Shown piece after piece: positions 5,659-60,872 of a DNA stretch of 64,000 bases. The translations under genes were made by a program, and so were the position numbers. Under the pieces are notes generated by a model, which made no database searches, was not told where the DNA came from, and was given only the letters and a program-made list of their open reading frames with translations. The stretch is from Bugula neritina (Eukaryota > Animalia > Bryozoa): contig OZ037767.1 in assembly GCA_964035545.1 (NCBI GenBank), forward strand, positions 15,504,998-15,568,997, in the 5' to 3' direction. Each line of letters begins with the position of its first letter. Positions within the stretch are counted from its first letter, which is position 1.

Positions 5659-5963
5659 TGTTATGATTTTCAGATTTAGGGTTGATGTGCTATCCAGAGA
5701 GTCTATTTATTTGCTATAGAACTGCACCAGGATAAGTCGAGTGAACGAGTATATTTTACACACAATTATACATTATAAAAACGATACATTATATTCAAAC
5801 AAGTTACACATCTAATCTATTTCACACTCTAGCTTCGACTGAGTTAACAGCGGGAAACTATAATCGCTGCTAACTATCAACTACGCTAATTGGCTATCCA
5901 TTGTTCCGGGTCAATTAGGCGACCCTACATGTTGTGCTGCTGGTAGTTCCACGAACCACCACA
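5659..5963 (-). repeat. 3' LTR of element A
   Basis: Matches 12820-13124 except one mismatch seen by eye (5918 G vs 13079 C). Confidence 0.97.
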
Positions 5964-5994
5964 CCGCCCCCACCAGCAGAAAGCCATCTTTCTG
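5964..5994 (-). other. G-rich PPT with upstream CAGAAAG/CTTTCTG hairpin, element A
   Basis: Minus strand reads CAGAAAG-ATGG-CTTTCTG-CTGGTGGGGGCGG immediately before the 3' LTR TG. Confidence 0.75.
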
Positions 5995-6253: not shown

Positions 6254-7331
6254 CTAGAGTCCTTGTTGGGCACGCCGGTGCTTGGCTTGGCATGTACGCA
6301 GTTTCCGTTTCATACGGCATACGGATCCCTTTAGCTGGAAGAGTCCTGTGGTAGTGTTAAGTAGATCTGGTGCCAGCTGGGTGAATTCTTCTTGTAATCG
6401 CAGGAGGCGTTCTTCTACTGTGGCTAGGCGGACTGGGTCTGGGGACGGTGTCCGTCTGCGGCGCAAGGGTGGACTGGGGGACCTGGTTCGTCTCTTCGTC
6501 GGGGTAGGGGAGATCTCTCCTTCTTCTGGATATGTGAATTCCTCGGGAGTGTATGTAATTTGAGGGCGGTCAGACACCAACGGGGATTGTTGGCGGGCGT
6601 TGTCTAACACACGTTGGAACCCCGAGGACAGAACGGCTAACAGCATGGCCTTCTTCACCAGAGGTCGTATAAGTGTGAGGAACTCCGGGTATAGCTTAGC
6701 GTCGACCACGTAGTTTTCTCCAGGGAAACAGCCCGTCGCTCGGTGTCTGGTGACGGGGTAGGGATACACATCATTGTACCCGCAGGGGCAGAATGTTAGT
6801 AGGAGATGAGCATTGACGTGTAGTTTAAGGGAGCGGTGAGAGGCGCAATCTTCACCACAGATCTGGCATCTCGTCCGTCCTCTGGACCCCCAGGCCGTTT
6901 CTATTTCTTCTTCTGTTTGTGGAGACACCCACCGCCAACGGCGGCGTAGTGGCTCAGGCCGGTCACCACTAGCATACTCCTCCGGATGCGGAGCGGGAAG
7001 TGTTCTATCCCGTACCCTGGTTGTAGCGGGTCGAGTGTAATCTGAAAAAGTTTCAACAGTGTTAATACAGTACACTGCCGTGTTGTCAGCTTGAACAGCT
7101 TGGCAACTCCTAATTCAGTTACCTCGTAGAGATTTATGGTAGTGAATAGTCAGATAGAACACGTATTGCAATGAGATTATAAAAATCTCTAAGTCAAACT
7201 GAGTTCTTACTACGGTATTTCACTAACCTATCTCCAGCTCGATTGACTCAGTGAGTCCGAGCTGAGCGATGCAATCTAGTTTCGTATTAAGATATAGTTA
7301 ACTCACCCCACGATCTGTTGTCGTAAGACAT
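6254..7331 (-). CDS. Element A ORF3: spliced zinc-finger/coiled-coil accessory protein (exons 7331-7307 + 7041-6254, ~270 aa)
   Basis: ATG TCT TAC GAC AAC AGA TCG TGG G|GTGAGT ... TTAAC ... TTTTTCAG|AT TAC joins in frame. Contains CQIC-x12-H-x3-H and CPC-x12-H-x4-C, an RSPSPPLRRRRTPSP tract and a C-terminal heptad helix. Homologous to ORF3 of element B. Confidence 0.8.
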
Positions 7332-7355: not shown

Positions 7356-10300
7356 CTACTGCTTAGAAACACGTCTACTCCTGACTGCATCAGCGTATGA
7401 AAAGATCGAGCAACGTGGTTGGGGTGCGTGATTAAGACTTTGTGCACCCGGCGGATGAATTTTGTTTCTATTTCCGCCGATACAAAAGTTGATATTTCCG
7501 TGGTGTTGACAACTCCCACATTTGCTCGATACTTTTCTCGTACGGTTTTCCCCTAGACTTTCATACGCGCCGCTTTTAACGCAGTCGCATATGAAGTCCT
7601 TCAAGTATGCGGGGGGTTGCCTCGTACGCTGTCCCCTTTCTAGGGGGGGTGACACGCTTGCCGGTTCGTTAGTAGGGGCCTCTAATGGCGTCTCTACTTC
7701 ACCGTTAGCGGTCACCTCTTCTTGTTCTCCGGATGGAGCCCCTCCCTCCGTGGGGGTTTGCACTTCCGGAACCGGTTCGGTTTCTGGAAGTGATGGAATT
7801 AGACTTGGCGGTGGCGGACACGCTTCTGTTGATAAAAGCTGCCGCTCCTCTCTCACCAAGTTTTCTTCCCGCGGTATGACCACTTCGTATTCAGGTCCAT
7901 GCCGCCGTCGCCCGCGCGTTGTTGTCTGCCTCCTGGGCTCTAACAACGGGGGGGGCTTCTCCCACTCTGTCGGGGCTAGCCCAATATGGTTTCAAGCGAG
8001 ACTCATTCTGGATAAACACCTGTCCTGAGCGCTCGATCTTGTACGTATGATTGGGCATAGCCTCGACTTCAGTTTATCAGCCTGTCCGCGACGCCTACGG
8101 TAATTGACCATCCACACCTTATCTCCCGTTTGATAGAGAGGTGGTTCATCGGAATCTTCGTGCCGCACCTTCCACTGCTGTTGGCGCAGTATATCGTGTG
8201 CGGCCTTCATCCGTTCCACTAGTTCACTGGCATACTCGTGAACCGAGTTGTCTTGCTCTGGAACGTGATAGGTGAGATGGTCAGGGACACGAGTCTCTCT
8301 CCCGAGCATCAAGAGGTTTGGGGTCTCACCAGTACTGGTGTGTGGGGTGCTACGGTATGCACGCATGACTTGCGGCAACACCGTATCCCATTCCTCTTGA
8401 CCTCGTCCAAGGAGGAGACTCCGGAGTGCATCACCTAGCATCCGGTTGTTGCGCTCCACCACCCCGTTACCTTGAGGGTGGTAGGGGGTGGTCCTGCTCT
8501 GATTTACTCCCCAGAGGTGGCAAAGGTCGCTCATCAGTTGAGACTGGAATTGAGCGCCTTGATCAGAGTGTATCTGTTCGGGGAGCCCAAAATAACAGAA
8601 TACATGTTGGTCTAGTGCCCTGGCCACTGTTGGGGCTGACGCATCTGGGATAGCCAGAGCATCCGCCCACCTAGTAAAGTGGTCGGTTAGTACTAGGATC
8701 CAATTATTGCCTCTGGGGGTCAGGGGCATGGGTCCGACTAGGTCTACAGCGACTACTTGCCAGGGCCTACCAGCATATAGCCTCCGCCGTCCTGCTTCAC
8801 CAGGGGGGCGGCTATGCTTACTGGCCTGGCAGATCTCACACTGTTTGACTCTGAGCCGGACGTCACGCTCCATTTGTGGCCAATACCACCGGAGTCGTAA
8901 TTTGGACATCACTCTCTTGACCCCTGCGTGGGCCTGTTTGTGAGTATCCCAAATCAACTCACGGCGGATGGCCGTGGGGCAGACTACCCTCTTCCTCTCC
9001 GGGTGTCTGCCGCTGGCGGCTAGAGAGATGGTTAATAACCCATCCTGCCCGATCCGCAGCGAGTCCCAACGCTGACAGTATAGCCGGAACTCGTATGCGT
9101 TCCTCGCTGGGTCGTCGCCCTTCCCTTTTGGCCCGGTATATGTCTGCCACGACTCCAGGCAGCTCTTCGTGGAGCTTCTTCAGCTCCCGAACATTACCGG
9201 CCAGTACAGGGTTGGCGCGGAGGTTTTGTACATCCTCCGGGGACTCATCAACTCTTTGCCTGGGTTGACCTTGGTCCCAGTCAAACGGTGCTCTGTGGTG
9301 AGCCAGCGTCTCCAACTCGCATCGCGGGGGACCTCCATCCCTCCTCTCGATGTTGAGACACTGTTTGCAACCTCCGTCAGGTTGGCGACTCAACCCATCC
9401 GCATTGCTGTGTCATTTGCCCGGTCGATGTTCGATCCGGTACGAGAATTCAGCTAGGATTTCGAGCCACCGGGCGACCTGACTAGAGGGCTCTGCTCTCT
9501 TGCACAACCAGATCAGCGAGGCATGATCCGTACGCAGCCGGAACTTCCTGCCGTATAGGTATGGTCTGAAGTGCTTCACTGACTTGATTACTGCCAGCAG
9601 CTCCTTGCGGGTAGTGCAGTAATTTCGTTCAGCGGGTGAGAGAGACTTGCTGTAGTAGGCTACTACTACCTCTCGGCCTTCCTGCACTTGTGACAGCACA
9701 GCGCCAACATTTTGGTCACTGGCGTCCGTGTCGAGGATGTACTCCAGAGTGGGGTCTGGGTAGGCCAAGATGGGCGCCGTTAGTAGGCAGCCCTTGAGGC
9801 GGTCGAACGCTTCTTGTTCGACTGGGGTCCACTGCCACGTCACTCCCTTTGCGGTGAGCCGGTTTAACGGCTGGGCTATGCCCGCAAAGTCTGGTATGTA
9901 TTGCCTGTAATACCCTACCAGCCCCAAGAAAGCCCGGAGTCTGGTCAAGTCTTGGGGGGTGACCCAGTCTTCTACTGCCCGTACCTTTTCGGGATCCGTT
10001 GCCACGCCGTTTCGACCGACAACGTGCCCCAGGTACTTGACCTCCGGCTGCAATAGAGCGCACTTGGAAGGTTTGAGCTTAAGACCGGCACCTCGGAGTC
10101 TCTCGAAAACCTCCTGCAGACGACTGACATGTGTCTCGAAGTCTGGAGAGATTACGATGACATCATCGAGGTAGACCAGCAGTGTCTTCCAATGGAGTCC
10201 GCTAAGGACTTGTTCCATCAGCCTCTGGAAGGTGGCTGGGGCGGAGGTTAACCCGAAGGGCAGTACCTTCCACTTCCACAAACCGTCCCGTGTGATAAAC

Positions 10301-11886
10301 GCCGCTTTCTCCTGGGCGTCGGGACTCAGAGGAACTTGCCAATAGCCGCTTAGGAAGTCTAACGTACTGAAGTACTTGCTGCCGGCTAGGGCGTCCAATG
10401 ACTCGTCAATACGAGGTAGAGGGTAAGCGTCCTGTATGGTTACGCTATTGAGTTTGCGGTAATCCACACAGAACCGCCAACTGCCGTCTTTCTTCCGGAC
10501 CAGTACGACTGGCGAGCTCCACGCACTATGGGCGGGCTCTATCAGTCCCCGGTCCAGAAGATCCCGTACTTGTCGGCTAACTTCCTTCTCTTTTTCAGGC
10601 CCCAGTCTGCGTGTGGGCTGCCGGACAGGGACTGTCCCTGCAGTCAGCGGTATTTCGTGCCTGACAACTCCAGTCAGCCCCACGTCATGATCTCCGCTAC
10701 TGAACACATCACCGTAGTCGCGTAGCAACTTCGCCATGGCTTGGCGTTCCTTGTTGTTCGCGCAGCCGCCACTGGCTGTTCCGTATATCTCCCGGAGATG
10801 TGTTGGGACTGCCCCTCGTCCCTGAATAGGGCACTGAGGGAGTGCCTCTGTCGCATCACCCAGCGACGGGCCTACGTCTCCCTCCTGAACAGAGTGAAAA
10901 CGGCCCAGCATCGACCCAGCCGGGAGCTTGATAGGCTCGGTAAAGGGGTTGACGCACTGCACTAAGATCTCCCCTTGCTCAGTCAGCTGATTCAGACTGC
11001 TGGCAAGTTGGATCTTTTCGTGCGCGCCTTCAACCACCCCGAGTCCAGAGATCCGGCTATTATTCACCCTGCAGTGAATGGTAGCCCGGGAGTGGCCTGG
11101 TATGATACGGTTGCGTACCACTTGCACACCTCCCACTAAAGGGCGGCCGAACTTGTCGACGCAGGCGAGTTCCCGCCCGGACATCATCATTGCAGATCTG
11201 CTAAAATCTATGTGACATCCGTGCCGTTTAAGGAACGGCATCCCGAGGATAGCATCCTCCTTGAGCTGACTGACGATGAACGTCTCTTGGATCGTTTGAT
11301 CACGGACTCGTCCCGTCAGCTCAATTATACCATAGAAGGGAAGGCACGACCCGTCAGCTAGGGTGCCGTATTCCCCTTCGTATGATTCCATCTCGCCCCT
11401 GACCCTAGCACTGAGGGTGTCGAAGAGTTGGCGGCTTAAGAGGTTTGTGGTACAGCCCGAATCAATGAGGAAAGTAACAGCTTTGCCTTCCAGTTTACCG
11501 GGCAAGAAATAGCTGTTCCCATGGGGCTGCACCTGAACTCTCTCTTCAGGCCCTACTCTCGCAGGGAGTACCTCCCTCGCTTTGGGTCGCGAAGGAGGTC
11601 TCTTGGGGCGGTGGTAGGTAGGCCTCGGGGGTGCCGAGGTTAGATCCCCGGCTACCTTTGTGGGCTCCCATCCAGATTCTTGGACTCGTAGCCCTGTGAA
11701 TCTGTTGTGAAGGGGCATAGAAAAGGCAGCCGCGGGGCGAAGCCCCTTGCTGGTCCGTCGTGGCTGTTGCCACTGTTGGTTGCCAGTACGCGGTACCCGT
11801 CTGGGTGACCTGCGTTTCTTCTTCCCTGGGGGTTTCATCGTCGGCCCGCAGGAGGTGGGAACATCTGCGGGCCGCGGTAGTTTAAC
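7356..11886 (-). pseudogene. pol: Element A pol (protease, RT, RNase H, integrase, Pro-rich tail), disrupted
   Basis: LIDSGC protease, YLDD RT, LDTDAS RNase H, HHCC and DLVG..D..E integrase. In-frame TGA at 9414-9412. Deletion frameshifts near 9105 and 8070 relative to element C. Confidence 0.93.
11822..11886 (-). promoter_or_regulatory. Candidate -1 ribosomal frameshift signal (G_TTA_AAC + stem/pseudoknot), element A
   Basis: In the gag/pol overlap: GTTAAAC, 5-nt spacer, CGGCCCGCAG/CTGCGGGCCG 10-bp stem, loop TTCCC complementary to a downstream GGGAA. Confidence 0.75.
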
Positions 11887-12788
11887 CCCTGATTTAGGAA
11901 GGGACAATATCGGCGGAAATGCCCTTGATTTCCGCACTCCCAGCAAAAACTGACCGTTTCTCCATGTGGCGGCGCCGATGGCCGCATGGGCTCAGGGGCG
12001 GTACTCACTGGGTTTTGTGGTGTCAGTGTTGCTATCAGCTTGGCTAGCATATCTGTCAGTTGAGTGACTTTCGATGCCGTCGCCAACTGGGACACGGCAG
12101 CCGCGGCGGGGGTTTCCTCCCCTTGTCCCGCGGCCGTGTCTGCGCGGTCTATCTCCACTTGATGGGAGCTTCCGCGACTTTTATGCATTTGATTAGCTAG
12201 GAGGTAAGCTTCCCCCTCAGTCAGAGCATCTTCAACGGTGGTGACTCCCCTAGCTAGAAACTGGTGGTGGAGACCCAGATCGTCGACAGATGCTATGAAA
12301 GCGTCGAGGGTATACCTCTCGCGGTTGACTGGGGGCAAGTCGCTGTACGCGATCTGTGCCAGCTTCATGACCGCGGCGGCATGCTCCCGCAGCGGGGTGC
12401 GGGGATCACGCCGCAACCTCTGTAATCGGGCCCTGGCATCTGTAGCAGAGAGGCCGAAGCGGGCCCGCAGAGAAGCAAAGATATTATCAATGTCTACGCC
12501 CAGCCCATAAGGCTTGGCTTTGTCCATCAATGCCATTCTAAGCTTCAGCAAGGCCACCCTAGGGGGCCACTGGGCGACGTCCATTACGTCGCTAAACTCT
12601 TGGATAGATTGTTCCACCTCCTCTTCACCCGTGAAGGTGGGCGCCTTTAACCTGTAGCGGTCCTCAGCTAGTTCTCGCGGAACCCTTCGCTCTTCTACTA
12701 CATGGTTAACAGGCATTGTCTCTACAGCATTGTCTCTACGCTCACCTTCTATTGCCGGTGGTTGAGTTCCAGCATTTTCAGTCTCCAT
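11835..12788 (-). CDS. gag: Element A Gag (capsid + CCHC zinc knuckle), intact
   Basis: 317-aa ORF starting at an ATG just after the PBS; CWECGNQGHFRRYC knuckle. Confidence 0.93.
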   Translation of the reverse strand: METENAGTQPPAIEGERRDNAVETMPVNHVVEERRVPRELAEDRYRLKAPTFTGEEEVEQSIQEFSDVMDVAQWPPRVALLKLRMALMDKAKPYGLGVDIDNIFASLRARFGLSATDARARLQRLRRDPRTPLREHAAAVMKLAQIAYSDLPPVNRERYTLDAFIASVDDLGLHHQFLARGVTTVEDALTEGEAYLLANQMHKSRGSSHQVEIDRADTAAGQGEETPAAAAVSQLATASKVTQLTDMLAKLIATLTPQNPVSTAPEPMRPSAPPHGETVSFCWECGNQGHFRRYCPFLNQGLNYRGPQMFPPPAGRR

Positions 12789-12800
12789 CTTGGATGCACT

Positions 12801-12818
12801 ATCCCACCGCTGCCACCA
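12801..12818 (-). promoter_or_regulatory. Primer binding site, tRNA-Leu
   Basis: TGGTGGCAGCGGTGGGAT, complementary to the 3' end (ATCCCACCGCTGCCA-CCA) of eukaryotic tRNA-Leu(AAG/TAG); lies 1 nt from the LTR. Confidence 0.88.
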
Positions 12819-12819
12819 C

Positions 12820-13124
12820 TGTTATGATTTTCAGATTTAGGGTTGATGTGCTATCCAGAGAGTCTATTTATTTGCTATAGAACTGCACCAGGATAAGTCG
12901 AGTGAACGAGTATATTTTACACACAATTATACATTATAAAAACGATACATTATATTCAAACAAGTTACACATCTAATCTATTTCACACTCTAGCTTCGAC
13001 TGAGTTAACAGCGGGAAACTATAATCGCTGCTAACTATCAACTACGCTAATTGGCTATCCATTGTTCCGGGTCAATTACGCGACCCTACATGTTGTGCTG
13101 CTGGTAGTTCCACGAACCACCACA
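12820..13124 (-). repeat. 5' LTR of element A
   Basis: Direct repeat of 5659-5963, adjacent to the PBS. Confidence 0.97.
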
Positions 13125-14624: not shown

Positions 14625-14976
14625 TGTAGTGAGTAGTGCAAGTACAAATACAGGAATCGCCCTCTCCCTACTCTTGGAATACTTAGACTCTTATGTAGCA
14701 ACCAATTAGCAGCTCCGGAAGATATGCTTCCGAGTCACGTGACACTTCCCGGGTTATTAGCATTATATCACGTTGTTGTAAGCGGAGGCTTGTAGTAGTA
14801 ACATGTGTTAGTAGTTGACTCTTGTATAGGATAATTTGATGTGATGTTTGGTTTATGCTTTATTGTGGATAATAAATATAATTACTCGACAGCTACCCTA
14901 GTAATTGATAACAGAATAACCAGCTAACTATACGCAAGTAAATAACTCACGCTCAGTAATTGCACAAATTACTACA
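14625..14976 (+). repeat. 5' LTR of element B
   Basis: TGTAGT...ACTACA; contains CCAAT, CCGGAAG, a GTCACGTGAC palindrome and AATAAA. Confidence 0.97.
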
Positions 14977-14977
14977 G

Positions 14978-14995
14978 TGGTGGCAGCGGTGGGAT
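14978..14995 (+). promoter_or_regulatory. Primer binding site, tRNA-Leu
   Basis: TGGTGGCAGCGGTGGGAT, identical to the PBS of elements A and C. Confidence 0.88.
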
Positions 14996-15011
14996 CTTGC
15001 GTATAGCAGTC

Positions 15012-15962
15012 ATGGCAGAAGACGGCACGGAGCTACCCATTCCACTGAATGAAGGTGAGAGAGATAATGTTGATATACCTGTGGAACCAGTGGTGTTAGA
15101 TGAAGAAGTGAGAATTCTTAGAGAGTATGGTGAAGACAGATACCGGATGAAGGCGCCCACCTTCGCAGGCGAAGAAGCAGTGGAGCAGTTTATCCAAATA
15201 TTCCAAGATGTGATGGAGATTTCAGAGTGGCCGCCAAGGGTGGCGCTGCTCAAGCTCAGGATGGCGCTGACGGGCAAAGCTAAGCCGTACGGAGCGGGAC
15301 CTGACATAAACGGAATCTTTGCTTCCCTGCGGGCCCGTTTTGGCATCTCTCCCATAGATGCGCGGGCCCGTCTACAGAGGATGCGGCGTGATCCTCACAC
15401 GTCACTAGAAGAGCACGCTGCCACGGTGTACCCACTAGCGCAGATTGCATTCCGCGATCTGCCTCCGGTACACCGTGAGAGGTATACTTATGATGCCTTC
15501 GTGCAGTCCATCAACGACTTGGGGCTCCACCATCAACTCCAAGCGAGGGGAGTCACCACGGTCGAAGATGCACTTGCGGTGGGAGAAGCCTACCTCTTGG
15601 CGACTCATATGCACCGCAACCGCGTGGCCTCCCGCCAGGTGACCACGGAGCACTCTACTGCTCACACCGAATTAGACGCGGAACCCTCCGCGGTGGCTAA
15701 TGTGAACCAGATGTCACTAGCGTCAAAAATCTCACAGATGACTGACATGCTAGATAAACTGGTCACCACATTAGCTTCCCCAAGCCAGGTAGATACTGCC
15801 CGTGAGCCTAGCGGGCCGCAGGTACAATCACCAGGCATGGGGCACCACTTCTGCTGGGAATGCGGAAGGCCAGGACATTTCCAGAGAAACTGCCCTCAAC
15901 TCCCACCAGGGTTAAACTACCCCGGCCCGCAGATGTTCCCACCTCCTGCGGGCCGTCTGTGA
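15012..15962 (+). CDS. gag: Element B Gag (capsid + CCHC), intact
   Basis: First ATG at 15012; clearly homologous to element A Gag; CWECGRPGHFQRNC knuckle. Confidence 0.93.
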   Translation: MAEDGTELPIPLNEGERDNVDIPVEPVVLDEEVRILREYGEDRYRMKAPTFAGEEAVEQFIQIFQDVMEISEWPPRVALLKLRMALTGKAKPYGAGPDINGIFASLRARFGISPIDARARLQRMRRDPHTSLEEHAATVYPLAQIAFRDLPPVHRERYTYDAFVQSINDLGLHHQLQARGVTTVEDALAVGEAYLLATHMHRNRVASRQVTTEHSTAHTELDAEPSAVANVNQMSLASKISQMTDMLDKLVTTLASPSQVDTAREPSGPQVQSPGMGHHFCWECGRPGHFQRNCPQLPPGLNYPGPQMFPPPAGRL

Positions 15963-15975
15963 ATCACCCAGGGAG
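15911..15975 (+). promoter_or_regulatory. Candidate -1 frameshift signal, element B
   Basis: GTTAAAC 15911-15917; stem 15923-15932/15946-15955; loop TTCCC able to pair with GGGAG 15971-15975. Confidence 0.75.
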
Positions 15976-18169
15976 GCCCGCGCGTCTGTCGCCCCGCTGG
16001 GCGCCGCGCGGAGATGCTGTGAAGTGGCGACCCCTGCGGCAAGTAGGCTCAAGCCACTCGCCGCCTGGGTCCTCTACGCCACTCCGGCACCAACACGGAG
16101 CCGGCAGACGGTTGACCACAGAGCCTGCGAGGGAAACGGTACAAGCGCCGCAAGGCGTACCGCCCCAACCTCGGCAGCTGGTCAATAGTCGCCGCCAACC
16201 GTGGACCCCTCGACCCACAGCGAGGGAGGTGCAACCACGGCACACTCAATTGCAGCCGCACGGAAGTAGCTACTTCCTGCCAGGGAAGTTAGCCGGCAAG
16301 CCTGCCAACTTCCTCCTGGACTCCGGCTGCACCACCAACCTCCTTAGCCGTCAGTTCTTTGACACCCTCAGCGCTAAGGTCAAGGACAGGTTGGCACCGT
16401 ACGAGGGGGATCATGGCACCTTGGCAGATGGGTCGTGCATTCCCTTCTACGGCATTATTGAGCTAACTGGTTACGTCCGTGACCAGGCCATCCAAGAGAC
16501 GTTTATCGTCGGGCAGCTCAACGAGGATGCTATCCTCGGGATGCCATTCTTACAACGACACGGTTGTCGCATCGATTTCAGTAAATCTGCGATAATCATG
16601 GGCGACAAGGAGCTCGCTTGTGTCGATAAGTTTGGTCGTCCTCTAGCGGGAGCAGTGCAGGTAGTACGGAGCTGTACTATACCAGGCCACTCCCGGGCTA
16701 CCGTCCGCTGCAAGGTAGACGGTGGCCAAACCTCTAAGTTGGGAGTTGTCGAAAGTACGCACTCGAGAGTCCAACTTGCCCGTAGTTTTAGCCGGCTCAC
16801 GGGGCAAGGAGAGATCTCAGTGCAGTGTGTCAACCCCTTCTCAGAGACAGTAGACCTACCACCCAGATCCATGCTGGGTCGCTTCCATCCTGTCCAGGAG
16901 GAAGCCATTGGGCCGTCGTCGGGAGCTACGACGGAAGGTCCTCAGCAGAGCCCGTCTCGAGGGCGGAGGACCGTCCCAACCCACGCCTCCCCTCCTCCAG
17001 GGACGCGTGGCTGCACAGGCAACGGGAAGCGCCAGGCTATGGCTAGGTTGCCACATGGGTACAGTGAGGCGTTCAGCCACACAGACCACGGAGCCCGCCT
17101 AAATAGAGCAGGCTGCCGTGAGGTACCACGGGCGGCGAGGACCGCCCCTGCTCAGCCACTTCAACAGAGGGCTGACACGCCCCCGGAGGCTGCCCAGAGC
17201 CTCCGCGCCAAACCTGTATGGGCTGGTAACGTTAGGGAGCTACCGAAGCTCCAGGAATGCCTTCCTGGGGTGGTAGCCGACGTGTACCGAGCGAAACAGG
17301 AGGGGCGACGACCCAGTAGTACACAACGGCGACAGGGATGCGCCGAGTTACGGCTGTACTGTCAACGTTGGAGCTCTCTGCGGGTCGGGCCAGATGGTCT
17401 GCTAACCATGACCTTGGCCGCCAACAACGGACAGCCAGCCAGGAAGAGGGTTGTCTGCCCAGTTGCCATCCGCCGGAAGTTGATACAAGACACCCACGAG
17501 GAGACTCACGGAGGAGTCCAAGGGGTGGTCACCAAGCTACAACTCCGGTGGTACTGGCCTAACATGGAACGGGATATCCGACGCAGAGTGAGACGGTGCA
17601 AAGTCTGCCAGACCAACAAGCATAGCCGTCTCCCTGGTGAAGCGGGGCGGCAGACGCATTGTGCGAGAAGGTCTCGGCAGGCGGAGACTGTCAACCTGGC
17701 CGGAAACACCTCCATGACACGTCAGGAAGACTTGGCGAGGCGAGAAAGGCCACTTCCGTCCTTGAAAGTGCGCCCACCGCCCCCAACGTCAAGCCTGCCA
17801 TCATCACCACTTCCGGAACCAGAAACAGGTCCGGAAGTGCAAAAACCCCCCGTGGGAGGGGCTCCGCAAGGAGATACCAACATAGGACCAGCACCACACA
17901 CTAGGCAACTTCCAGCGTGTCTCAGAGACTGTGTACGTGACCGCGGTATAAGCGGCAGTAACAAAAGTCTAGAGAGGCCTCGCATGGGAAAACAGGCAAA
18001 GAGCCGTGGGAGTTGTGATCACCACGAGAATCTCAACTTTTGCCTCGGCGGAATCTCACACGAGATTCATCCGCTGGAAGTGAAAAGCCCTAGTCACGTT
18101 TCACAACCACGCTGCCCGGTCTTTTCCTATGTTGATGCAGTCGAGAGTAGACGTGCCAGTAAACAGTAA
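15911..18169 (+). CDS. pol: Element B truncated Pol: protease + linker + integrase Zn-binding remnant + conserved tail
   Basis: LLDSGC protease intact; no YLDD; in-frame junctions near 17155 (RT/RH lost) and 17705 (IN core lost); uninterrupted ORF to 18169. Confidence 0.85.
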   Translation, partial: VKLPRPADVPTSCGPSVNHPGRPARLSPRWAPRGDAVKWRPLRQVGSSHSPPGSSTPLRHQHGAGRRLTTEPARETVQAPQGVPPQPRQLVNSRRQPWTPRPTAREVQPRHTQLQPHGSSYFLPGKLAGKPANFLLDSGCTTNLLSRQFFDTLSAKVKDRLAPYEGDHGTLADGSCIPFYGIIELTGYVRDQAIQETFIVGQLNEDAILGMPFLQRHGCRIDFSKSAIIMGDKELACVDKFGRPLAGAVQVVRSCTIPGHSRATVRCKVDGGQTSKLGVVESTHSRVQLARSFSRLTGQGEISVQCVNPFSETVDLPPRSMLGRFHPVQEEAIGPSSGATTEGPQQSPSRGRRTVPTHASPPPGTRGCTGNGKRQAMARLPHGYSEAFSHTDHGARLNRAGCREVPRAARTAPAQPLQQRADTPPEAAQSLRAKPVWAGNVRELPKLQECLPGVVADVYRAKQEGRRPSSTQRRQGCAELRLYCQRWSSLRVGPDGLLTMTLAANNGQPARKRVVCPVAIRRKLIQDTHEETHGGVQGVVTKLQLRWYWPNMERDIRRRVRRCKVCQTNKHSRLPGEAGRQTHCARRSRQAETVNLAGNTSMTRQEDLARRERPLPSLKVRPPPPTSSLPSSPLPEPETGPEVQKPPVGGAPQGDTNIGPAPHTRQLPACLRDCVRDRGISGSNKSLERPRMGKQAKSRGSCDHHENLNFCLGGISHEIHPLEVKSPSHVSQPRCPVFSYVDAVESRRASKQ

Positions 18170-18192
18170 TCAGTTACCACTCTCATTCCAAA

Positions 18193-19194
18193 ATGTCTTA
18201 CTATTCTGGATCGAAGGGTGAGTTAATTATGTTTTTGGTATGATAACTAGACTGCATCAGTCAGCTTAGCTACACTAGCTAGCTGGAGATTCGATAATGA
18301 TAAACAGTGGTGGGAATACACGTCGACTTTGATTTTAAATAATCTGTCATAGCGAGTGTGTTCTCCATCAACTATTCATTAGCCTGAATCTCACGAGTGT
18401 AACTGAACAGAGTACCGGTCAGGCTGTACACGCCGACGGTGCCTCAGTGTATAATCTTTAACACTGCTACTCTTTCAGATCACACTCGAGTGACCACCTC
18501 CCGGTCACGGGACCAGCCAACCTCTCTGTCTATGGAAGAAGAGCCTGTAATGGAGAATGGCATACCAGTAGTACTCCGCCGACGACACCGTTGGGTGTCA
18601 CCCACGACAGAAAGGAGAATTGAAGAAGCCTGGGGACCCAGTGGACCACACCGAACCTGCCAGGTCTGCTTTGAGGAGTGTCCGTCACACCGCTCCTTGC
18701 GTTTACATGTAGATGCCCATTTCCTACTCCACTTCTGTCCCTGCGGGTTCCACGACGTCTACCCGTATCCCGTGACAGTACATAAGCTAAGCTGCTTCGC
18801 CGGAGAGAACCACACTGTTGATGAAGACAGTTTCCCCCTATACCTGGATGCCATCAAACCAGTCATCAGGAAGGCTATTACCCTGGCCGCACTAACGTCA
18901 GGGTTTCACGTACTGTTACTATCTGCCCGCCATAAGTCTCCTATGGTTCAGGGCCCACCTCCTACCCCCGTCAACCCTAGCAACACCCCAGAAGTAGAAG
19001 AAACAACCATATCCCGTATAACGGAGACCCCTATAACCCCACCAAGGCCTAGCCAGCTGGCTAACGTAGAAGAGCGGCTTCTAAGACTGCAAGCCGAGTT
19101 CACACAACTTGCCCCTGACTTGCTGGATACGACGACAGGTCTATACCAGTTGAAGGACTCAGTGGGACGACTGAAGAGGCGGCTACGGGCCTGA
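18193..19194 (+). CDS. Element B ORF3: spliced zinc-finger/coiled-coil accessory protein (exons 18193-18217 + 18479-19194, ~246 aa)
   Basis: ATG TCT TAC TAT TCT GGA TCG AAG G|GTGAGT ... TTAAC ... CTCTTTCAG|AT CAC joins in frame. Contains CQVC-x12-H-x3-H, CPC-x12-H-x3-C and the VEERLLRLQAEFTQLAPDLL helix shared with element A. Confidence 0.8.
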
Positions 19195-19504
19195 CAGGCT
19201 CGACACAGAGCACGGTCGCTACAAGAAGCAGAGTCCAACCAATGAGAATGCCTGGGGTAGGCACCTTCGTTGAGCTATAGCTCGTTTGGAATGTGACGAG
19301 CGCTCCGACATTGGCCCGCGTGCTGGTAAGCACCCTCTCTCTTAATAGCTGACTAGATGTGTGTGATCGATCACCCTGTTGTCTTCTAATGTAAACGTTG
19401 TCGTGTTTAACTATTTCTTTTCTTACTCTTTGTGGGTTTACTTATGTATATTTTCCTTTTTGGATTATTGTATGGTTTTTCATTATGTTTTTTTATTGTG
19501 TTAT

Positions 19505-19536
19505 CAGAAAGTAGGGCTTTCTGCTGGGGGGGACGG
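19505..19536 (+). other. Hairpin + G-rich PPT, element B
   Basis: CAGAAAG-TAGGG-CTTTCTG-CTGGGGGGGACGG directly before the 3' LTR. Confidence 0.75.
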
Positions 19537-19888
19537 TGTAGTGAGTAGTGCAAGTACAAATACAGGAATCGCCCTCTCCCTACTCTTGGAATACTTAGAC
19601 TCTTATGTAGCAACCAATTAGCAGCTCCGGAAGATATGCTTCCGAGTCACGTGACACTTCCCGGGTTATTAGCATTATATCACGTTGTTGTAAGCGGAGG
19701 CTTGTAGTAGTAACATGTGTTAGTAGTTGACTCTTGTATAGGATAATTTGATGTGATGTTTGGTTTATGCTTTATTGTGGATAATAAATATAATTACTCG
19801 ACAGCTACCCTAGTAATTGATAACAGAATAACCAGCTAACTATACGCAAGTAAATAACTCACGCTCAGTAATTGCACAAATTACTACA
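19537..19888 (+). repeat. 3' LTR of element B
   Basis: Direct repeat of 14625-14976. Confidence 0.97.
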
Positions 19889-36500: not shown

Positions 36501-38814
36501 TGAACTACTCGATGGCTGTTGTGGTGAAGCTGAAAAATGCTGACATAGAAGATGTAATGGAAAGACTTTGTTTTGCTTGTCCAGGTAAATCATTTGTACA
36601 AAATTAAAAGTCTATTATGATAACAGATGATCTAAAAATAAATTGCATATCTTAAGGCTTAGTGGTAATATAATATACTTTGAGCACAAATTTAAAAGAT
36701 TAAAAAGCCCTGCATTGCTTACCTAGTATATTATCTCTTTACACATATTAGAAAAAGAAGTCATCATAATTTTTTTACTACAGAACATAGTCAAATTATT
36801 ACATTTACTTTTACATGAATAATCAGTTTCTCAGTTTTTTTTCTTTATCTTCATGAACAAGCATTAACTTTGAAGACCTAAAAATAATGCACACAATTTT
36901 GAGGTATTTTTCTTCTTAAGTGTTTAAAATGTTTGACAGTTGGAAGAATATTTGGACATGATGTCAGTATGTTTCCTAGTTTTTCATATGGTTGAACTTG
37001 ATTTTTGTCATCCTCCTATACTCCTTAAGTGTGGAGTCCTGAATGTACACTTTTACTACGCTATTGTTCAGGGTTGTTTTAATTTTACTCTGTTACTTTA
37101 CTATATTTTAATCAACAAACCCCTAATTTATATTGATGGTATTTATGGTTATATTTTAGTCAAGCTGACCTAACACTTGTTCAGTTCAGGCTCATCAATG
37201 TATGTTTGGTTTAGAAAATTAAACTGCAATGTGAAGTATTCAGACTAGTTACTTAACTAAAAAATGCACTAAATGCAAGGAAATATTATGTTAATATTTG
37301 TTACCATAGTTCATTTCAAACTCATACATGTGATCAACAAAATACTTCATTTTGTTTTGCAGTGTAATCAAGATGAAATTATGAATGATGAAATTATGGA
37401 TGGCAGCCAATTTATTTTGACTATCAGACAAGGACTACAGTTTTTATGGTAATTTCAATTTTTGAATATATCTCTTATATTATACATAAAATGTTCACCT
37501 TCTGCTTTAATTTGCAGCCAGGTTTTACTCATGGCTGCTGTATTCAAGTCACCTCATCACACAGCCAATCTACAAGACTGTCATAAAAGTTGCTATTATA
37601 TTTTTTCACCAATTAATTAAAAGAAATAGAACTTCGGCTTCACAAGTGGTGTCACTCTCATACTCATTGTTTTACTTAATTTTGCCATCCTCCTATTCTT
37701 CACTGTATTCTTTTAGGTCGCAGTGTTCTGCACTAATCTATGATCTCTTTTGATTTTTAACCCCCATGTTTAAATGTTTTGGTCTTGCTCTCTTTCTCTG
37801 GAGTTTCACACTGATGTAGCTGATTCCCTTCTTGTTTTATTGTTCTCTGCTGCATAGGTGCCCATATTATTCCAGCCTTCTCTTTCCCACAAATATAGTT
37901 ACTGCATTTACTGCCGCCCTGTCTCAGATCCCTTCATTTCTGGGGACGAAGCAATATTCCGAAGGCCCATTGCTCCGAAGGTCCATTAGTCCGAAAATTA
38001 GTACACACAGGCATCCTCACTGAGAATATCATTAATATCACTCACAATTCAGTTTAAGTTCTTGCTATATTATTGATCTGTGGGTGGCATGCTGTTTGCC
38101 TATTTGTGATTGTTTAGCCTGAGATTACACTATGATCAATAAGGGCTGTATCAACATTCCATTATGGCTGCTCCATAAACAAAGTACACACCAAGCTATT
38201 CATTAGCCTGTCACCTCGCAAGCCTGTAATTAATAATGTACCGTACGCATAATCATGTTGATAGATGATGTAGCAAGTAGGCAACACACATGCCACCCAC
38301 AGAGCAATAACATAGCTAGAACTTAAACTGAATTGTAAGTGAAATTAATGATATTCTCATTGAGGATGCCTGTGTGTACTAATTTTCGGACTAATGGACC
38401 TTCGGAGCAATGGGCATTCAGAATATTGACTAGTTACCCTCATTGCTTATGTAGCACAACTCATCTCCATGAAACCTAATTGATCCTCTAGGTACTAAGA
38501 ACTAGGGGCTGTCTGCAGTCATAATTTATTGCCAAAAGACATTGTCAGTCAAATGCACATTTTATATCAGCATTTTCAATTTTGTTGGAGTCTTCTTGAT
38601 GGAGCCTTACCCTATTTCTTTTTCTACCCCTGTTTTGCATACTCTGTTGCTATGTGTCACTTCAATGAAACCATCGCCTCAACTTATTTAGTTTGACTGT
38701 TGAAATATATTTTGCTTTTACAGGTCTAAAAGAAAGTGGCCATTTGAGTTTAAGTGCAGCTTCACTATTGACAAGAACATCTACGTTAGAGAAGAAAAGC
38801 ATCTAGCTATATAA
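33568..38814 (+). other. Candidate exon chain (decayed gene or lncRNA)
   Basis: Canonical AG/GT-bounded blocks at about 33568-33717, 34905-35030, 36494-36584, 37363-37448 and from 38724. Internal stops; no recognisable domain. Confidence 0.35.
37942..38439. mobile_element. Foldback MITE with ~165-bp TIRs, 8-bp TSD
   Basis: 37942-38106 is an inverted copy of 38274-38439; flanks TCATTTCT / TCATTGCT (7/8). Confidence 0.85.
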
Positions 38815-46607: not shown

Positions 46608-48171
46608 TACATATCTTTAGTATGTTCAAGCTTGCTGACCCAAATAATTATGTATGTTTTAAGATATATGTAATACATATTTATTTATTTAGTAATATTT
46701 ACTTCTGTGTTTTTATGAGTTTCTAGAATCATACTTTTATTGTTACATTATTTATTATTGTGCTATTTTTAGAAAATGTCAAAACACGAAAAAACAAACC
46801 CGCAAACTTAGTCCAAGTCAGAAATATTGAAGTTAGAGAAATAAGTGATGACATCATATCCTTTATCGAACATCCGGCTGATTCTACTAAAATATTAGCG
46901 GCTACATCAAAACAACTTGTAGAGATCAATCACCATGGAGACTGTATAGCAGTAGCTGGTGTGCAGCTACAAGGTTGTGCCTATCAATCGAATGAATTTT
47001 CTTTTTCCTCAATCGGTCATTTTATTTATGCCCATTTCAACAAACTGAAAGTCTCTCACAGTCTTTTCAACAAATCAGCCATTTTGGTTGCTGATGCAGG
47101 TAATCACTGCGTAAAGTTTCTCATTCTAAAAAATTTATCATCTTTTGAGTTTGAAAATTCAATAAATGACTACCATGTTGGTAAGTGTGGATCTTTTAAA
47201 AAAGAATCGTTCTTGGAGAGCCTTCAAAGTTTAGTTGATCTTAAAGAAATGGAGCTGAACACCCCAAAACATCTTTCTCTGTACCATGACTCTGAGACTA
47301 TCAGACTGGTTGTTAACTGTGTACTGACTGAAGTATACTCTGTTATTGTTGGTATCTATCCAACTCACACTGTAGCATATGAGTACAGTGGACACCCTGG
47401 GTATGTAACTGATGTTTCTGAAAATCTCTATTGGCCATTATTTCGATCAAAAGGATTGAAAAGTCTTTCAACTGATAACAGCACATCAATAAACCAAATC
47501 ATTGTCATTAATGGGAGTTACTCAACTACTGCAAATTATCATTGTAATTCCAGAAACAGTTCTGCTATTCCTAGACTGTTTCAAAGTTGGCCTTTAGTTA
47601 TTGCAAATGGTGAATTGAAATCTCTGGTTTATAATTCGACAAGCAGTGAAATCAAACTAACTAACATAAATATTGCTAATCTTTCTACAAAAACACCCCC
47701 TGAATTTAGCCAGTTTACTATGACAAAGGAATCCAATCAAATTATTCTCTACAATCAAAGCCTAAAGAAATTTTATTATGCAAAGGCATTTTCTCGCTAT
47801 CGGAAAATTCTGGAAATGTTCTGTAGTGACTATGTAATAGCAAAAGCCATTGTGGGTGGACCTGAAAGTTGTGCTTACATCTGCAGTAAATATGGTAGTC
47901 AGTGTGTTGCTTTTTCTGTTAATGATTATGATAATTCTTGCTACATTCATGACCACTTTGACTTGGCCGATGCCTACATATTGGATGACTCAGCTTGTTA
48001 TTTATCTATAACATAATTATAACGTATAATTTTATAGTTGAACACCACTTTCTGATGACAACATTAGTGATGCTTTATTTTAATTTATGTTAATTTTTAT
48101 TAATCATAATTATATTATTTTCATTCAATCAAATAGTTTTTGGATATGATACACAGTGGCTTTTGAAAATT

Positions 48172-50211: not shown

Positions 50212-50480
50212 TGTAACGGGCGTGGTTTACTCGTCTCGCGCACCCCCTGCCAATCACAGAGAGTGATAGATAACAATTGTATTAAGCCAAGCAGTAGTAG
50301 TTAGTTAGCATGTAGCAACAGTGATGTAAAGCAGTAATTACCGTGATACTTAGAGATATTTTCATGTTTTATTATATACTTGTAATAAAGATTCCAAGTG
50401 AAACTACGATTGTATTGTCTGTGACTAAATGATAATTGGACTCACTAGAAGCCCACATAATTATTGTGCATCGCACAACA
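50212..50480 (+). repeat. 5' LTR of element C (start inferred)
   Basis: TGTAACGGG...CGCACAACA with CCAAT and AATAAA, followed by the PBS; no full second copy to confirm the start. Confidence 0.65.
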
Positions 50481-50481
50481 G

Positions 50482-50499
50482 TGGTGGCAGCGGTGGGAT
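50482..50499 (+). promoter_or_regulatory. Primer binding site, tRNA-Leu
   Basis: TGGTGGCAGCGGTGGGAT. Confidence 0.88.
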
Positions 50500-50532
50500 A
50501 TTTCTAGCTGAGACAATGAACAGACGGGAAAC

Positions 50533-51235
50533 ATGACAGAACACACAACAAAACACCCGGGAGGTAAGCCAGCCAATTTTTTTGCATATAGAGGAGGTGT
50601 ATAGAGATAAACTGACCGCTCCCACCTTCACGGGTGTAGAAGATGTGGAGCAATTCATCGAGGAATTCCACGATGTGGTAGACGTCGCTCAGTGGCCGCC
50701 ACAAGTAGCCCTCGTCAAACTGCGGGAGGTATTGACGGAGCGCGCTAGACAGTTCGGACAGGGACGGAGCGTGGCGGAGATATTCACTGCACTACGGAGC
50801 CGTTTTGGCACCTCCGCCCTGGAAGCCAGGGCCCGTCTACAAGTGCTACGCCAAGCGGAAGACACTCCACTCCGTGACCACGTTGCCTTAGTGAAGAGAC
50901 TGGCACGGAGCGCGTACAGCGACCTGCCAGAAACACACCGACGGAACTTTACTCTCATTGACTTCATGCAGTCCCTGAAAGATGTGGGTCTCTACCACCA
51001 ACTAAAGGCGAAGGGAGTGACCACCTTAGAGAGTGCCCTCCAAGTCGGGGAAGACTACCTCCGGGCCGAACAGCTATATACCGAGAAAGCAGAAGGCAAG
51101 CAAGTCACCGCGGCGGTAGCCCAATCACTCGGAGAGAAGATGGGCCGGTTGACCGTCAGACTGAAACAGATGGCAAAGACCCTTACCGATGCCGGGCCCC
51201 CCAGCCGAGGACCAAAGGGAGAGACCCCAGAGTGA
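50533..51235 (+). pseudogene. gag: Element C Gag, frameshifted in T-run near 50577-50583, no CCHC
   Basis: APTFTG...WPPQVAL...EARARLQ capsid motifs shared with A and B; the ATG at 50533 is out of frame with the main ORF. Confidence 0.8.
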
Positions 51236-51852
51236 ACTACCCGGAGTAAGAAAAGCGGCAAGCCAGGGCCTTCCCGCCCAAGAGACCCCCAACCCAGAAG
51301 AAGGCCTCACGGGCCGAAGAGAGAGCAACCACGGGGCGTACCCCGTGAATGGCAGATACCACGACGGACCAGCCGCCCTAATGGGCAACGCGAACCGTTC
51401 AGGCTACCAATCACCAACCGCTTCAGCCAGTTACCGGAGACGAAGCTAGCCCTCGGGACATCGGAAAGGAACTAAGCACCCCTCCGCCAAAGAAGCGGCA
51501 CCAGCAGGCCACCAAACGGACAACACGCCGTTTGACGGAGACTGCGCATGCTAGGGAAGTAAGGTTGCAACCGCATGGAGAGAGCTACTTCTTGCCCGGG
51601 ATGGTAGCCGGCAAAGCCGTCACGTTCTTGCTAGACTCCGGTTGCAACACGAATCTCCTCAGCAGACGAGTCTTCGATGCCCTCCCTCTCCAGGTGAGGA
51701 AGGAATTTGCTCTCTACACCAGGGAACCTGGCACCCTCGCAGACGGGTCGCGTATCCCCTTCTACGGTGTTGTAGAGCTGCCTGGTCGCGTCCGCGACCG
51801 GGCCATCCAGGAAACTTTCATCCTCAGCCAGCTGGAAGAAGATGCCATCCTG

Positions 51853-52608
51853 CACAGGATAGTTAAGGGCAACCTTTTAGCTGCAACTGCCTTGCTGAGG
51901 TTTGCATTGTAATCATATAAGAATTCAGTACCAGTAAAATAAAATCTCACCTAATTATGCTAGAGTCAAAATTTAAAAACTATGCTGTAGATCTTCTTTT
52001 TCTCCAGGGTAAATTTTTTGGAAATTTCAATTTTAATTTTTTTTGCAAAGTTATAGACAAAAAACTGCCCAATTTAGGCCAATTTTGCCTGAAAAGCTGA
52101 CTTTTCAGTACCAATAAAATATCTCAGCAGCAAAACATGATATCTGAATAAAAATTGCACTGCTGGAATCCTGAGATATTTCTCCAGGGTAACTTTTTTT
52201 CTTTTTTCAATAATTCTTCTAGATTGCCCACAAATTGGTGATTTATACACTGAAAATGCCATATTTTTTCATAGTAAATTAGCAGCGCGCAGTGCTTCAC
52301 GCTTCAATGAGCACGTAGGGATGAGAAGATATTGGCGCGTACATGCTAATTATAGGCTTGCTAGCTGGCAGGCTATAATGAATAGCTTGCTTGGTACTTT
52401 GTTTATGTAGCGCCTATACTGGAATGTTGATAGATAACGCAGCCCTAATGAAGGTTGCTGCTTATTGGTTGTAGTTTGATCTTAGGCTAAACAATTGCAA
52501 GTAGGCAACACGCATGCCACCCGCAGAGTAGTATTATTCAGGAACCTAACCTCCATTTTGAGAGAAATTTATGATATTCTTAGTGAGGATGCCCTTAACT
52601 ATCCTGTG
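51853..52608. mobile_element. Non-autonomous TIR element with CAC...GTG ends (CMC/EnSpm-like), inserted in the protease of C
   Basis: 19-bp perfect TIR CACAGGATAGTTAAGGGCA; TG on both flanks; splits EEDAIL|GAPFLKRH. Confidence 0.85.
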
Positions 52609-53990
52609 TGGGGCGCCGTTCCTGAAGCGACACCAATGCCATATGGATTTCCATAAGTCCGCCATACTAATGGCAAGCCGGGATTTTTCCTGTGTCGATA
52701 GGTTCGGCCGTCCCTTGGTCGGGGGCGTGCAGGTGGTACGTAATTGTACAGTACCCGGCCGCTCCTGGGCGATCATTCACTGCAGGGTGAATGACCACCA
52801 ACTCTCTGGATTAGGGGTCGTTGAAGGAACGCACAAGAGAATCCAACTCGCCAGTAGCTTGAACCGGCTAACTGACCGAGGGGAGATTTTGGTGCAGTGT
52901 ATCAACCCCCTTTCAGAGTCGGTGACACTACCATCCGGATCCCTACTGGGGCGCTTCCACACGGTCCAAGAGGGAGACATAGGGCCGTCGCTGGGCGAGG
53001 CGACGGAGGGTCCCCAAGAGCGCCCGTCTGTACGGCGGGGGACCATCCCGGAACACGTTCAAGAGCTATACCAGTCAGCCTGTGAAGGCTGCGTGGGCAA
53101 CAAGGAGCACCAAATTATGGCCCAGTTGCTGCGCCAGTATGGGGAGGTGTTCAGCAGCGGAGACCAGGACGTGGGCCTGACTAGGGCCGTCCGTCACGAA
53201 ATACCGCTAGCTGCCGGGACTCTCCCTATCCGCCAACCCACTAGGAGACTGGGGCTGGAGAAGGAGAAGGAGGTCAGCCGACAAGTCCGGGATCTTCTGG
53301 ACCGCGGCCTCATAGAGCCTGCACATAGTGTGTAAAGCTCCCCAGTCGTTCTGGTCCGGAAGAAAGACGGCAGTTGGCGGTTCTGTGTGGATTACCGCAA
53401 ACCTAATAGCGTAACCAAACAGGACGCCTACCCTCTACCTCGGATAGACGAATCCCGGGACGCCTTTGCCGGCAGCAAGTACTTCAATACTTTAGACTTG
53501 CTGAGTGGCTACTGGCAATTCCCCCTGAGTCTCGACGCCCAAGAGAAAGCGGCGTTCATCACCAGAGATGGGCTGTGGAAGTGGAAGGTACTGCCCTTCG
53601 GGTTAACTTCCGCTCCTGCTACCTTCCAGCGGCTCATGGAACAGGTTCTCAGCGGGCTCCACTGGAAGACGCTGCTCGTCTACCTCGATGATGTCATCGT
53701 GATCTCCCCAAACTTTACGACTCATGTCAGTCGTCTGCGGGAGGTCTTCGAGCGACTCCGAGGTGCCGACCTCAAACTCAAACCTTCCAAGTGCGCTCTC
53801 TTGCAGCCGGAGGTGAAGTACCTGGGGCACGTCGTCGGCCGCAATGGCGTGGCGACGGACCCCGACAAGGTGCGGGCTGTGGCCGACTGGGTCACCCCCC
53901 AGGACTTGACCGGACTCCGGGCCTTCCTGGGGCTGGTAGGGTATTATAGACAATACATACCAGACTTTGCGGGGGTTGCACAGCCGTTAA

Positions 53991-60862: not shown

Positions 60863-60872
60863 AATTATTCAT

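Follow-up and report, generated by a model that had tools for sequence, protein, structure and literature searches.

Results

Three related Gypsy elements in the window

The window, by which we mean the whole 64,000-nucleotide stretch of Bugula neritina DNA that was analysed (contig OZ037767.1), is AT-rich at about 30% GC and contains three related, GC-rich Gypsy elements, A, B and C. Element A (13124-5659, minus strand) has LTRs, a target-site duplication (TSD), a primer-binding site (PBS), a polypurine tract (PPT), gag, pol and a third gene, here called ORF3. Its 305-bp 5' LTR (12820-13124, minus) has TG..CA ends and differs from the 3' LTR (5659-5963, minus) by one mismatch; the 4-bp TSD is GTAT. 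The PBS (12801-12818, minus) is of the tRNA-Leu type, and the same 18-mer occurs in B (14978-14995) and in C; the PBS 12-mer of the three elements is given as tRNA-Leu type in the supplements of PMC13524379. The gag gene (11838-12788, minus), which has a weak zinc-knuckle match, is followed by a pol gene (7356-11991, minus) for protease, reverse transcriptase (RT), RNase H and integrase. Two in-frame stops (9412-9414 and 7992-7994) and a frameshift near 9100-9260 disrupt this pol gene.

Element B (14625-19888, plus) has identical 352-bp LTRs (14625-14976 and 19537-19888, plus), the second with the PPT directly upstream, and the TSD CTAT. Its gag (15012-15962, plus) is followed by a pol remnant (15812-18169, plus) and then by ORF3. 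The remnant is a single open frame of 785 codons that retains protease and the integrase zinc finger, deletions having removed about 1.35 kb with RT and RNase H and about 0.9 kb with the integrase core. Element B thus looks like a recently mobilised non-autonomous form that has retained gag, protease, the cis-block and ORF3. Element C (about 50480-56990, plus) is of the same lineage, its pol DNA being about 80% identical to that of A. Insertions at about 51852-52604 and 53993-54659 interrupt it, it is cut off past the integrase tail, and close to the degenerate start of gag it has a donor-like GAG|GTAAGC. It ends before the third gene, and within the window an ORF3-domain profile matches only A and B.

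LTRs with TG..CA ends, TSD, PBS and PPT identify the elements as Ty3/Gypsy LTR retrotransposons, and the order of gag followed by protease, RT, RNase H and integrase is present in A and C, B being internally deleted. The best 120 RT relatives are mostly unnamed, and those with names are 47-57% identical. A preliminary description of the locus had assigned A and B to two families with unrelated LTRs. The LTRs are indeed barely alignable, giving no blastn match at E < 0.5, a global alignment score of z 3.9 against local shuffles, and just two 9-mers in common; but because the Gag proteins are 63% identical, the PBS is the same and the PPT with its upstream block (5964-5994, minus, in A) is nearly so (28 of 31 positions), the two are sister families. 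As A and B form one lineage, ORF3 was acquired once rather than twice.

The elements have observed/expected CpG ratios of 0.78-0.83, against 0.35-0.57 in the flanks. Elsewhere in the window are a MITE-like element (37952-38428) with 156-bp terminal inverted repeats (93%), which has a relative inside element C (52347-52593); two paralogous long open frames (46727-48016 and 59728-61023, both plus), with 77% DNA identity over 600 nt, a Cys-rich C-terminus and no credible Pfam match; and a near-perfect 117-bp palindrome (900-1016).

Structure and splicing of the third gene

As previously described, a coding region lies between pol and the PPT in both elements, and the two copies are homologous (52% identity over 259 aligned residues, E 4e-83). 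The same description had taken 6254-7331 and 18193-19194 each for a single ORF, which is ruled out by the many stops met when either interval is translated; in its place we find two exons. In A, a short ATG exon (7307-7331, minus; 8 codons plus 1 nt) with the donor GG|GTGAGT precedes a 265-nt GT..AG intron (7042-7306, minus) with TTAAC and a pyrimidine tract, and then a main exon of 261 codons (6254-7041, minus), which contains two zinc fingers (about 6868-6806 and 6790-6728), a Pro/Ser/Arg linker, a coiled coil (about 6427-6299) and a basic tail. The counterparts in B are a short ATG exon (18193-18217, plus; donor AGG|GTGAGT), a 261-nt intron (18218-18478, plus) and a main exon of 237 codons (18479-19194, plus) with fingers at about 18658-18720 and 18736-18795, whose stop (19192-19194) falls within the basic tail, roughly a dozen codons before that of most relatives. 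Both introns end in TTAAC..TTTCAG, and the main exon follows a conserved phase-1 acceptor.

This acceptor is compatible with two donors, both of phase 1, one lying 43 nt into gag and the other after the 8-codon ATG exon behind pol, so that two forms of the ORF3 mRNA are predicted. The first form would begin with a gag-start exon of 14 codons plus 1 nt, at 12746-12788 (minus) in A, with the donor AAG|GTGAGC at 12745, and at 15012-15054 (plus) in B, with the donor AAG|GTGAGA at 15055; both donors are in phase 1 at the same distance from the gag ATG. The second form would begin with the short ATG exon.

Expression of the third gene from a spliced subgenomic RNA is represented by one assembled junction for each form, each seen once, in independent assemblies. 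For the gag donor, residues 1-14 of a public protein (P0023), which belongs to a B-like element, match the start of B Gag at 12 of 14 positions (E 1.5e-7, against the window), and residues 15-39, directly after, match the ORF3 main exon. Its contig, at 5,320 nt, is longer than such an mRNA would be, so that P0023 probably represents the spliced RNA copied back into DNA. This JGI contig would imply mobile mini-elements of about 2 kb, spliced from gag to ORF3 and made up of only PBS, PPT, LTRs and ORF3. For the short exon, whose splice sites had been predicted from sequence before the junction appeared, one contig of run X2 joins 18217 to 18479 with GT..AG ends, leaving out exactly the 261-nt intron of B. 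This junction, which is among the joints listed (15 of 22) and shows the one-base ambiguity expected from the sequence, comes from a single contig whose shorter side is 28 letters long (the bar being 31), at a likeness of 80 and in a run of unrecorded kind; should X2 be DNA, the contig would represent an intron-less copy, which would still imply splicing of an RNA intermediate. Further joints of X2 in the B intron (from 18381 and 18400) have no splice signals at their ends and were set aside as diverged segments.

The ORF3 acceptor is also supported by homologues predicted with prokaryotic gene finders, which, where they reach it, mostly read S-D or L-D at this point, and by P0026, which begins V-S-Y about 88 codons upstream, as expected from a GTGAGT donor. 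Among the joints listed for A (15 of 42), none falls at its splice sites. RNA run X1, in which DNA carry-over is possible, yielded 18 short contigs on A, a coverage too thin to be of use, with no junction among them; one (219 nt) lies in the main exon. A conserved pyrimidine tract with GCAG before the pol stop (7377-7356, minus, in A; 18141-18169, plus, in B) could be a further acceptor, and joining it to the gag donor would give a short upstream frame that closes with the pol stop codon, the short ATG exon beginning about 25 nt further on. In both A and B, ORF3 is in the sense orientation relative to gag-pol, which sets it apart from antisense accessory ORFs of the brtn/Grande type.

A zinc-finger and coiled-coil protein

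The predicted proteins of A and B both contain the features earlier attributed to them: a C2H2 finger (CxxC-x12-H-x3-H), a second finger (CxC-x12-H-x3/4-C), which across the family is closed mostly by Cys, an LRRRxRWVSP motif and basic patches, with Arg-rich motifs at both ends of the protein, and a heptad helix, in which 12 of 13 a/d positions are hydrophobic in A. The RSPSP/RRRR insert of the linker, also reported, is present in A, but of 37 close members only two have it, A itself and the near-copy P0001. Across the family, the core consists of a Trp-bearing helix, the C2H2 finger, a 5-residue linker, the CxC-x12-H finger, a strand and three helices, and in 72 diverse members eight positions reach a conservation of 90% or more (C58, C61, H74, H78, C84, C86, H99 and D113). 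A disordered linker runs from the core into the heptad helix, which is followed by the basic tail; among distant members with long tails, the C-terminal heptad helix is found in 16 of 36, as against 18 of 720 shuffles.

A model of the core (131 residues, 105 sequences) reached a pLDDT of 94 and a pTM of 0.87, while a full-length model drawing on 59 close sequences was of poor quality (pLDDT 54), and a fold search with it returned nothing. Foldseek found no match to the core in PDB or BFVD at E up to 0.001, and among 48,161 chains searched with VIA the best Z was 3.8 and none was 5 or above, which does not in itself prove a new fold. Only the finger pair resembles a known structure, and weakly: Kaiso (Z 3.7, rmsd 3.0, 57 aligned). 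Profile matches point to SALL and ZBTB fingers, and the ESM Atlas returned clusters of generic C2H2 type, with little overlap of features and a TM of at most 0.23 by query. NCBIfam gave nothing credible for ORF3, and at an E of 0.1 or less Pfam zf-C2H2_4 matches 26 of 72 members, with 1 of 69 passing the curated cut-off in a separate scan. As a whole protein, therefore, ORF3 matches no family catalogued in the Pfam, PDB, BFVD and NCBIfam searches, and a confident match to a characterised Env or accessory family was absent from the Pfam, PDB, BFVD and VIA results alike.

The pair departs from classical tandem C2H2 fingers in having a hydrophobic linker of five residues, not of the TGEKP type, and atypical reading residues. 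In the close family the reading helix of finger 2 is P-Y-P (P 37, Y 37 and P 36 of 37), and position 6 of finger 1 is L or V in 37 of 37 members; these reading helices look ill-suited to base reading, as judged from their residues. In distant members the reading helix carries R-D (53 and 49 of 69), and acidic, aromatic/Leu-rich N-terminal windows occur in 11 of 49 members, a count with no shuffle control. Patterns of nuclear export signal (NES) classes 1 and 2 common to A and B are absent outside the finger and the adjacent helix, and those of class 3 lie inside the coiled coil only.

The preliminary description saw neither a signal peptide nor a membrane anchor, and hydropathy agrees: the highest KD19 value is 1.51 in A and 1.43 in B, below 1.6 and internal, the first exons are hydrophilic, and the judgement is one of simple hydropathy rather than of a dedicated predictor. 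In 7 close relatives a mildly hydrophobic internal helix reaches 1.6-2.2, with Lys/Arg within it. Each of the two proteins has one sequon. No Env-like row, and no F- or gB-type fusogen match, appeared in the Pfam, PDB or BFVD searches, and a protein of about 250-280 residues with a zinc-finger core cannot hold an ectodomain of the F or gB type. Given this absence of membrane features and a Cys/His pattern that is that of zinc fingers, the proposal that the third gene is not an Env holds.

Selection, homologues and spread

Had ORF3 been drifting, the ratio of nonsynonymous to synonymous change would have been near 1. Between the main exons of A and B, pN is 0.32 and pS 0.77 (saturated), and the bootstrap upper bound on dN/dS is 0.23 (0.15 in the gag comparison), far from 1 and indicative of purifying selection. 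Mismatches are concentrated at third codon positions (147 of 234, against 87 and 69 at the other two), the most constrained regions being the fingers (pN 0.24) and the C-terminal helix (pN 0.12); the linker and the 30 codons at the N-terminus seem to evolve almost neutrally.

The gene is also present in other members of the family, there being 71 more close homologues and dozens of distant ones. A word search returned 72 proteins, including that of B itself, none with a name or a Pfam domain, and an exhaustive search returned 108 representatives of 50% clusters. Species names were attached to 5 clusters among 30 proteins looked up, and all were bryozoan (Watersipora subatra and Bugula neritina). 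Because P0048 and P0080 start with pol-tail sequence (E 2e-11 and 2e-5), a place after integrase follows at least for the close family and for one member further removed; 120 Pol relatives included none with the ORF3 domain or the pol tail, so that no fusion was seen. When metagenomes were scanned, alignment A2 gave 82 pattern matches and P0099 gave 24, with no relative among them, and a viral scan with the integrase of A gave no match. On a quick, unrooted and poorly resolved tree of 98 of 133 domains, the close family having been thinned, the annotated bryozoan sequences are spread over four positions among unnamed ones, the deep branches being unresolved.

Conservation and folding at the pol end and in the intron

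As background for conservation outside coding constraint, we took the four-fold sites of ORF3, gag and protease, at which A and B are identical in 113 of 265 cases. The last 165 nt of pol (7356-7520, minus, in A; 18005-18169, plus, in B) stand well above this, at 75% (123 of 165 identical; Fisher p 7e-11), as does the 5' part of the short intron (78 of 110; p 5e-7), while the 3' UTR is at background (113 of 245; p 0.48). Coding constraint was considered for the pol-end block and rejected, no frame having a third-position excess (mismatches 22/16/20, 12/13/16 and 13/16/12); the block is a candidate cis-element, be it an internal promoter, an upstream acceptor or an RNA element. No 9-mer is common to the LTR of B and its internal block.

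The intron alignment scores z 12.7 against local shuffles after removal of the splice signals, and the intron folds better than its shuffles in both elements (z -2.8 in A and -3.7 in B, with 3 and 1 of 200 shuffles as good). The predicted fold in each is a short hairpin and a long stem, with 24 pairs identical between A and B and 55 of the 75 pairs in A lying within two columns of pairs in B. Three common pairs have changed on both sides, although two sequences cannot prove covariation. A comparison with Rfam gave no match. Unusually good folding is also predicted for the part of the pol tail that precedes the conserved block (7900-7500, minus, in A; 17700-18020, plus, in B), 120-nt windows descending to z -4.9 in A and -4.0 in B, as low as or lower than the intron.

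Discussion

That these elements carry a real third gene, which is under selection, expressed by splicing and not an Env, we regard as very probable. No description of the ORF3 family was found in the literature, as searched by titles and the beginnings of abstracts; repeat databases such as Repbase, Dfam and GyDB may contain the family without annotation. Judging from the fingers, basic patches and modelled core, the protein is likely to be a nuclear nucleic-acid-binding regulator, the class to which the preliminary description assigned it. Among the activities that such a class could include, regulation of RNA export or splicing is favoured by the splicing of the gene, its Gag-derived first exon and the conserved, structured intron. 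We put a probability of roughly 40% on our main reading, that ORF3 acts in the manner of Rev or CERV on structured RNA around the pol end and the short intron.

Because a strong donor lies just inside gag, the genomic RNA must avoid being spliced. Under the main reading, default splicing from this donor, 43 nt into gag, would yield the ORF3 mRNA first, and the protein would enter the nucleus by way of its Arg/Lys patches, oligomerise through the coiled coil and bind a predicted element carried only by intron-containing RNAs. Unspliced gag-pol RNA so bound could evade splicing and be exported, and output would shift towards genomic RNA. The folded intron would be absent from both forms of the ORF3 mRNA, just as some RNAs of HIV lack the RRE. 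On the other side, many simple retroviruses and errantiviruses splice their RNAs without any Rev, which counts against this reading, as do the lack of a common NES pattern of classes 1 and 2 outside the finger and its adjacent helix and the equally strong folding of parts of the pol tail; and the Kaiso-like superposition, the R-D helix of distant members and the acidic windows favour DNA binding and thus argue against a Rev-like role.

The main rival, which we consider rather unlikely, builds on these last features. In foamy viruses, the transcriptional activator Tas works together with an internal promoter, and ORF3 could likewise be a DNA-binding autoregulator of transcription, the pol-end block serving as internal promoter for early transcription of the short-ATG-exon mRNA, whose protein product then activates this promoter, the LTR or both. 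C2H2 fingers that superpose, if weakly, on DNA-bound tandem pairs and match SALL and ZBTB profiles would fit such a role, as would the R-D helix and acidic windows of distant members, the occurrence of the domain in annotated bryozoan genes, and the position of the pol-end block, conserved with no codon periodicity just upstream of the ATG exon; and Tor elements are described in PMC4402516 as having internal promoters for their third gene. However, the close family has P-Y-P in the helix of finger 2 and neither A nor B has an acidic, activation-like window. The finger-1 helix is nearly invariant although the LTRs are barely alignable (two common 9-mers), the LTR and internal block of B have no 9-mer in common, and the conserved folded intron would be left unexplained.

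Other roles appear less probable still. An anti-silencing factor, or one that targets integration or chromatin, acting in trans on element DNA or host chromatin, would have the nuclear type of architecture seen here and would agree with the high CpG ratios of the elements relative to their flanks and with two young insertions with similar TSDs (GTAT and CTAT), but young insertions are CpG-rich in any case, nothing ties ORF3 to integrase, and domain and fold searches returned no reader or catalytic domain; we hold this to be improbable. About equally improbable is a cytoplasmic or particle-associated protein, such as an RNA chaperone or a packaging or restriction factor, linked to Gag by the 14 Gag residues or by the coiled coil: the common N-terminus, and a coiled coil with basic patches, would suit assembly of ribonucleoproteins, yet those 14 residues are all that is held in common and are poorly conserved, the alternative first exon gives an unrelated N-terminus, and the basic clusters resemble nuclear localisation signals. 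The position of the gene in the env slot, its spliced expression, the internal helix that reaches KD19 1.6-2.2 in 7 close relatives and the existence of host-annotated homologues might recall a degenerate or unusual Env or fusogen, or a captured host fragment kept with no function. This last reading is largely refuted, and we judge it very improbable, by the strong purifying selection, the zinc-finger Cys/His pattern, the lack of a signal peptide and terminal anchor, the single sequon in each protein, the Lys/Arg inside the hydrophobic helix and the failure of Pfam, PDB and BFVD to return anything Env-like.

The closest functional precedent for the Rev/CERV-like reading is CERV, encoded by the Cer1 element of C. 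elegans (Sun et al. 2023, PMC10309623), which is nuclear and needed for export of Cer1 genomic RNA, and which is translated from a spliced mRNA, has its N-terminus in common with Gag and contains a Cys finger, a leucine zipper and a nuclear localisation signal. ORF3 likewise is an accessory protein of an LTR retrotransposon, with a spliced mRNA that includes the Gag N-terminus (by way of P0023) and strong splice sites in gag. Compared by description only, CERV is a protein of 517 residues from five exons that overlap the gag region, with a C4 loop, a ring-forming M domain and a G-protein-like domain, and is described as having no homologues outside nematodes (PMC10309623), whereas ORF3 has its main exon in the env slot, C2H2 and C2HC fingers and a second first exon. 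On the Rev-like reading, ORF3 would work like CERV, by analogy, and we do not class it as a member of that family. With HIV-1 Rev and HTLV Rex it would have in common a predicted logic: a spliced regulator with Arg-rich motifs that oligomerises and recognises a structured element found only in intron-containing RNA. There is no homology, however, and Rev, for which a CRM1 export signal is proven, is without a zinc finger (PMC10309623); no such signal is evident in ORF3.

In errantiviruses and Tor elements (PMC13524379, PMC4402516), the env gene is also a third gene after pol, served by a donor near the start of gag or by an internal promoter, and errantiviruses in some cases also have a tRNA-Leu PBS (PMC13524379). 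Their Env, however, is a glycoprotein of the F or gB type with a signal peptide and a transmembrane anchor, all of which ORF3 is without, and in bryozoan errantiviruses a gB-type env is placed between gag and pol (both from PMC13524379). Extra genes after pol that do not encode an Env are known from plants, fungi and rotifers (PMC7264820, PMC5408684); the accessible part of PMC8220671 holds nothing relevant to them. As in the bdelloid ORF3s (PMC5408684) and in Grande gene23 and Boty brtn (PMC7264820), the extra gene here lies between pol and the 3' LTR throughout its family. GENE23 of Grande is nuclear, and a regulatory role is suspected for such genes (PMC7264820). The bdelloid proteins, however, are esterases, exonucleases, transmembrane or coiled-coil proteins (PMC5408684), and the genes of Grande and Boty are antisense (PMC7264820), while ORF3 is sense; a spliced, sense-strand protein with tandem C2H2/C2HC fingers is not described in PMC7264820 or in the accessible part of PMC5408684.

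CERV is the sole worked-out Rev-like case among animal LTR retrotransposons that our literature searching returned. If the Rev/CERV-like reading is correct, ORF3 would be a second, unrelated solution, based on zinc fingers and paired with a candidate response element, which would mean that control of this kind evolves repeatedly; and the compact protein-RNA pair, with its many natural copies, could be tested in reporters. Accessory genes for regulation are a mark of complex retroviruses. We tentatively suggest, while leaning against it on present evidence, that this Gypsy lineage is a 'complex' retrotransposon with an independently evolved switch of the Rev/RRE type, consisting of an undescribed family of tandem zinc-finger domains exchanged with host genes, two alternative first exons (the Gag start and the internal ATG) and a structured RNA in its own intron.

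The occurrence of the domain in annotated bryozoan genes offers a test case for capture versus domestication. XP_067940964 and XP_067944745 of Watersipora subatra, and KAF6037488, KAF6040923 and KAF6028766/KAF6040397 of Bugula neritina, have the same two-finger core, often with the C-terminal heptad helix; unlike the element-borne ORF3, they are annotated as host genes, and some have a tandem domain. KAF6028766 is a fragment belonging to the close family, at 57% identity. Each of these homologues may be a source gene, a domesticated copy or a mis-annotated element. Two of them, P0125 (XP_067944745, Watersipora) and P0203 (KAF6040923, Bugula), have in common an extra N-terminal block (37% identity, E 5e-11) and may be orthologous host genes, either the source of the element-borne domain or a domesticated copy of it.
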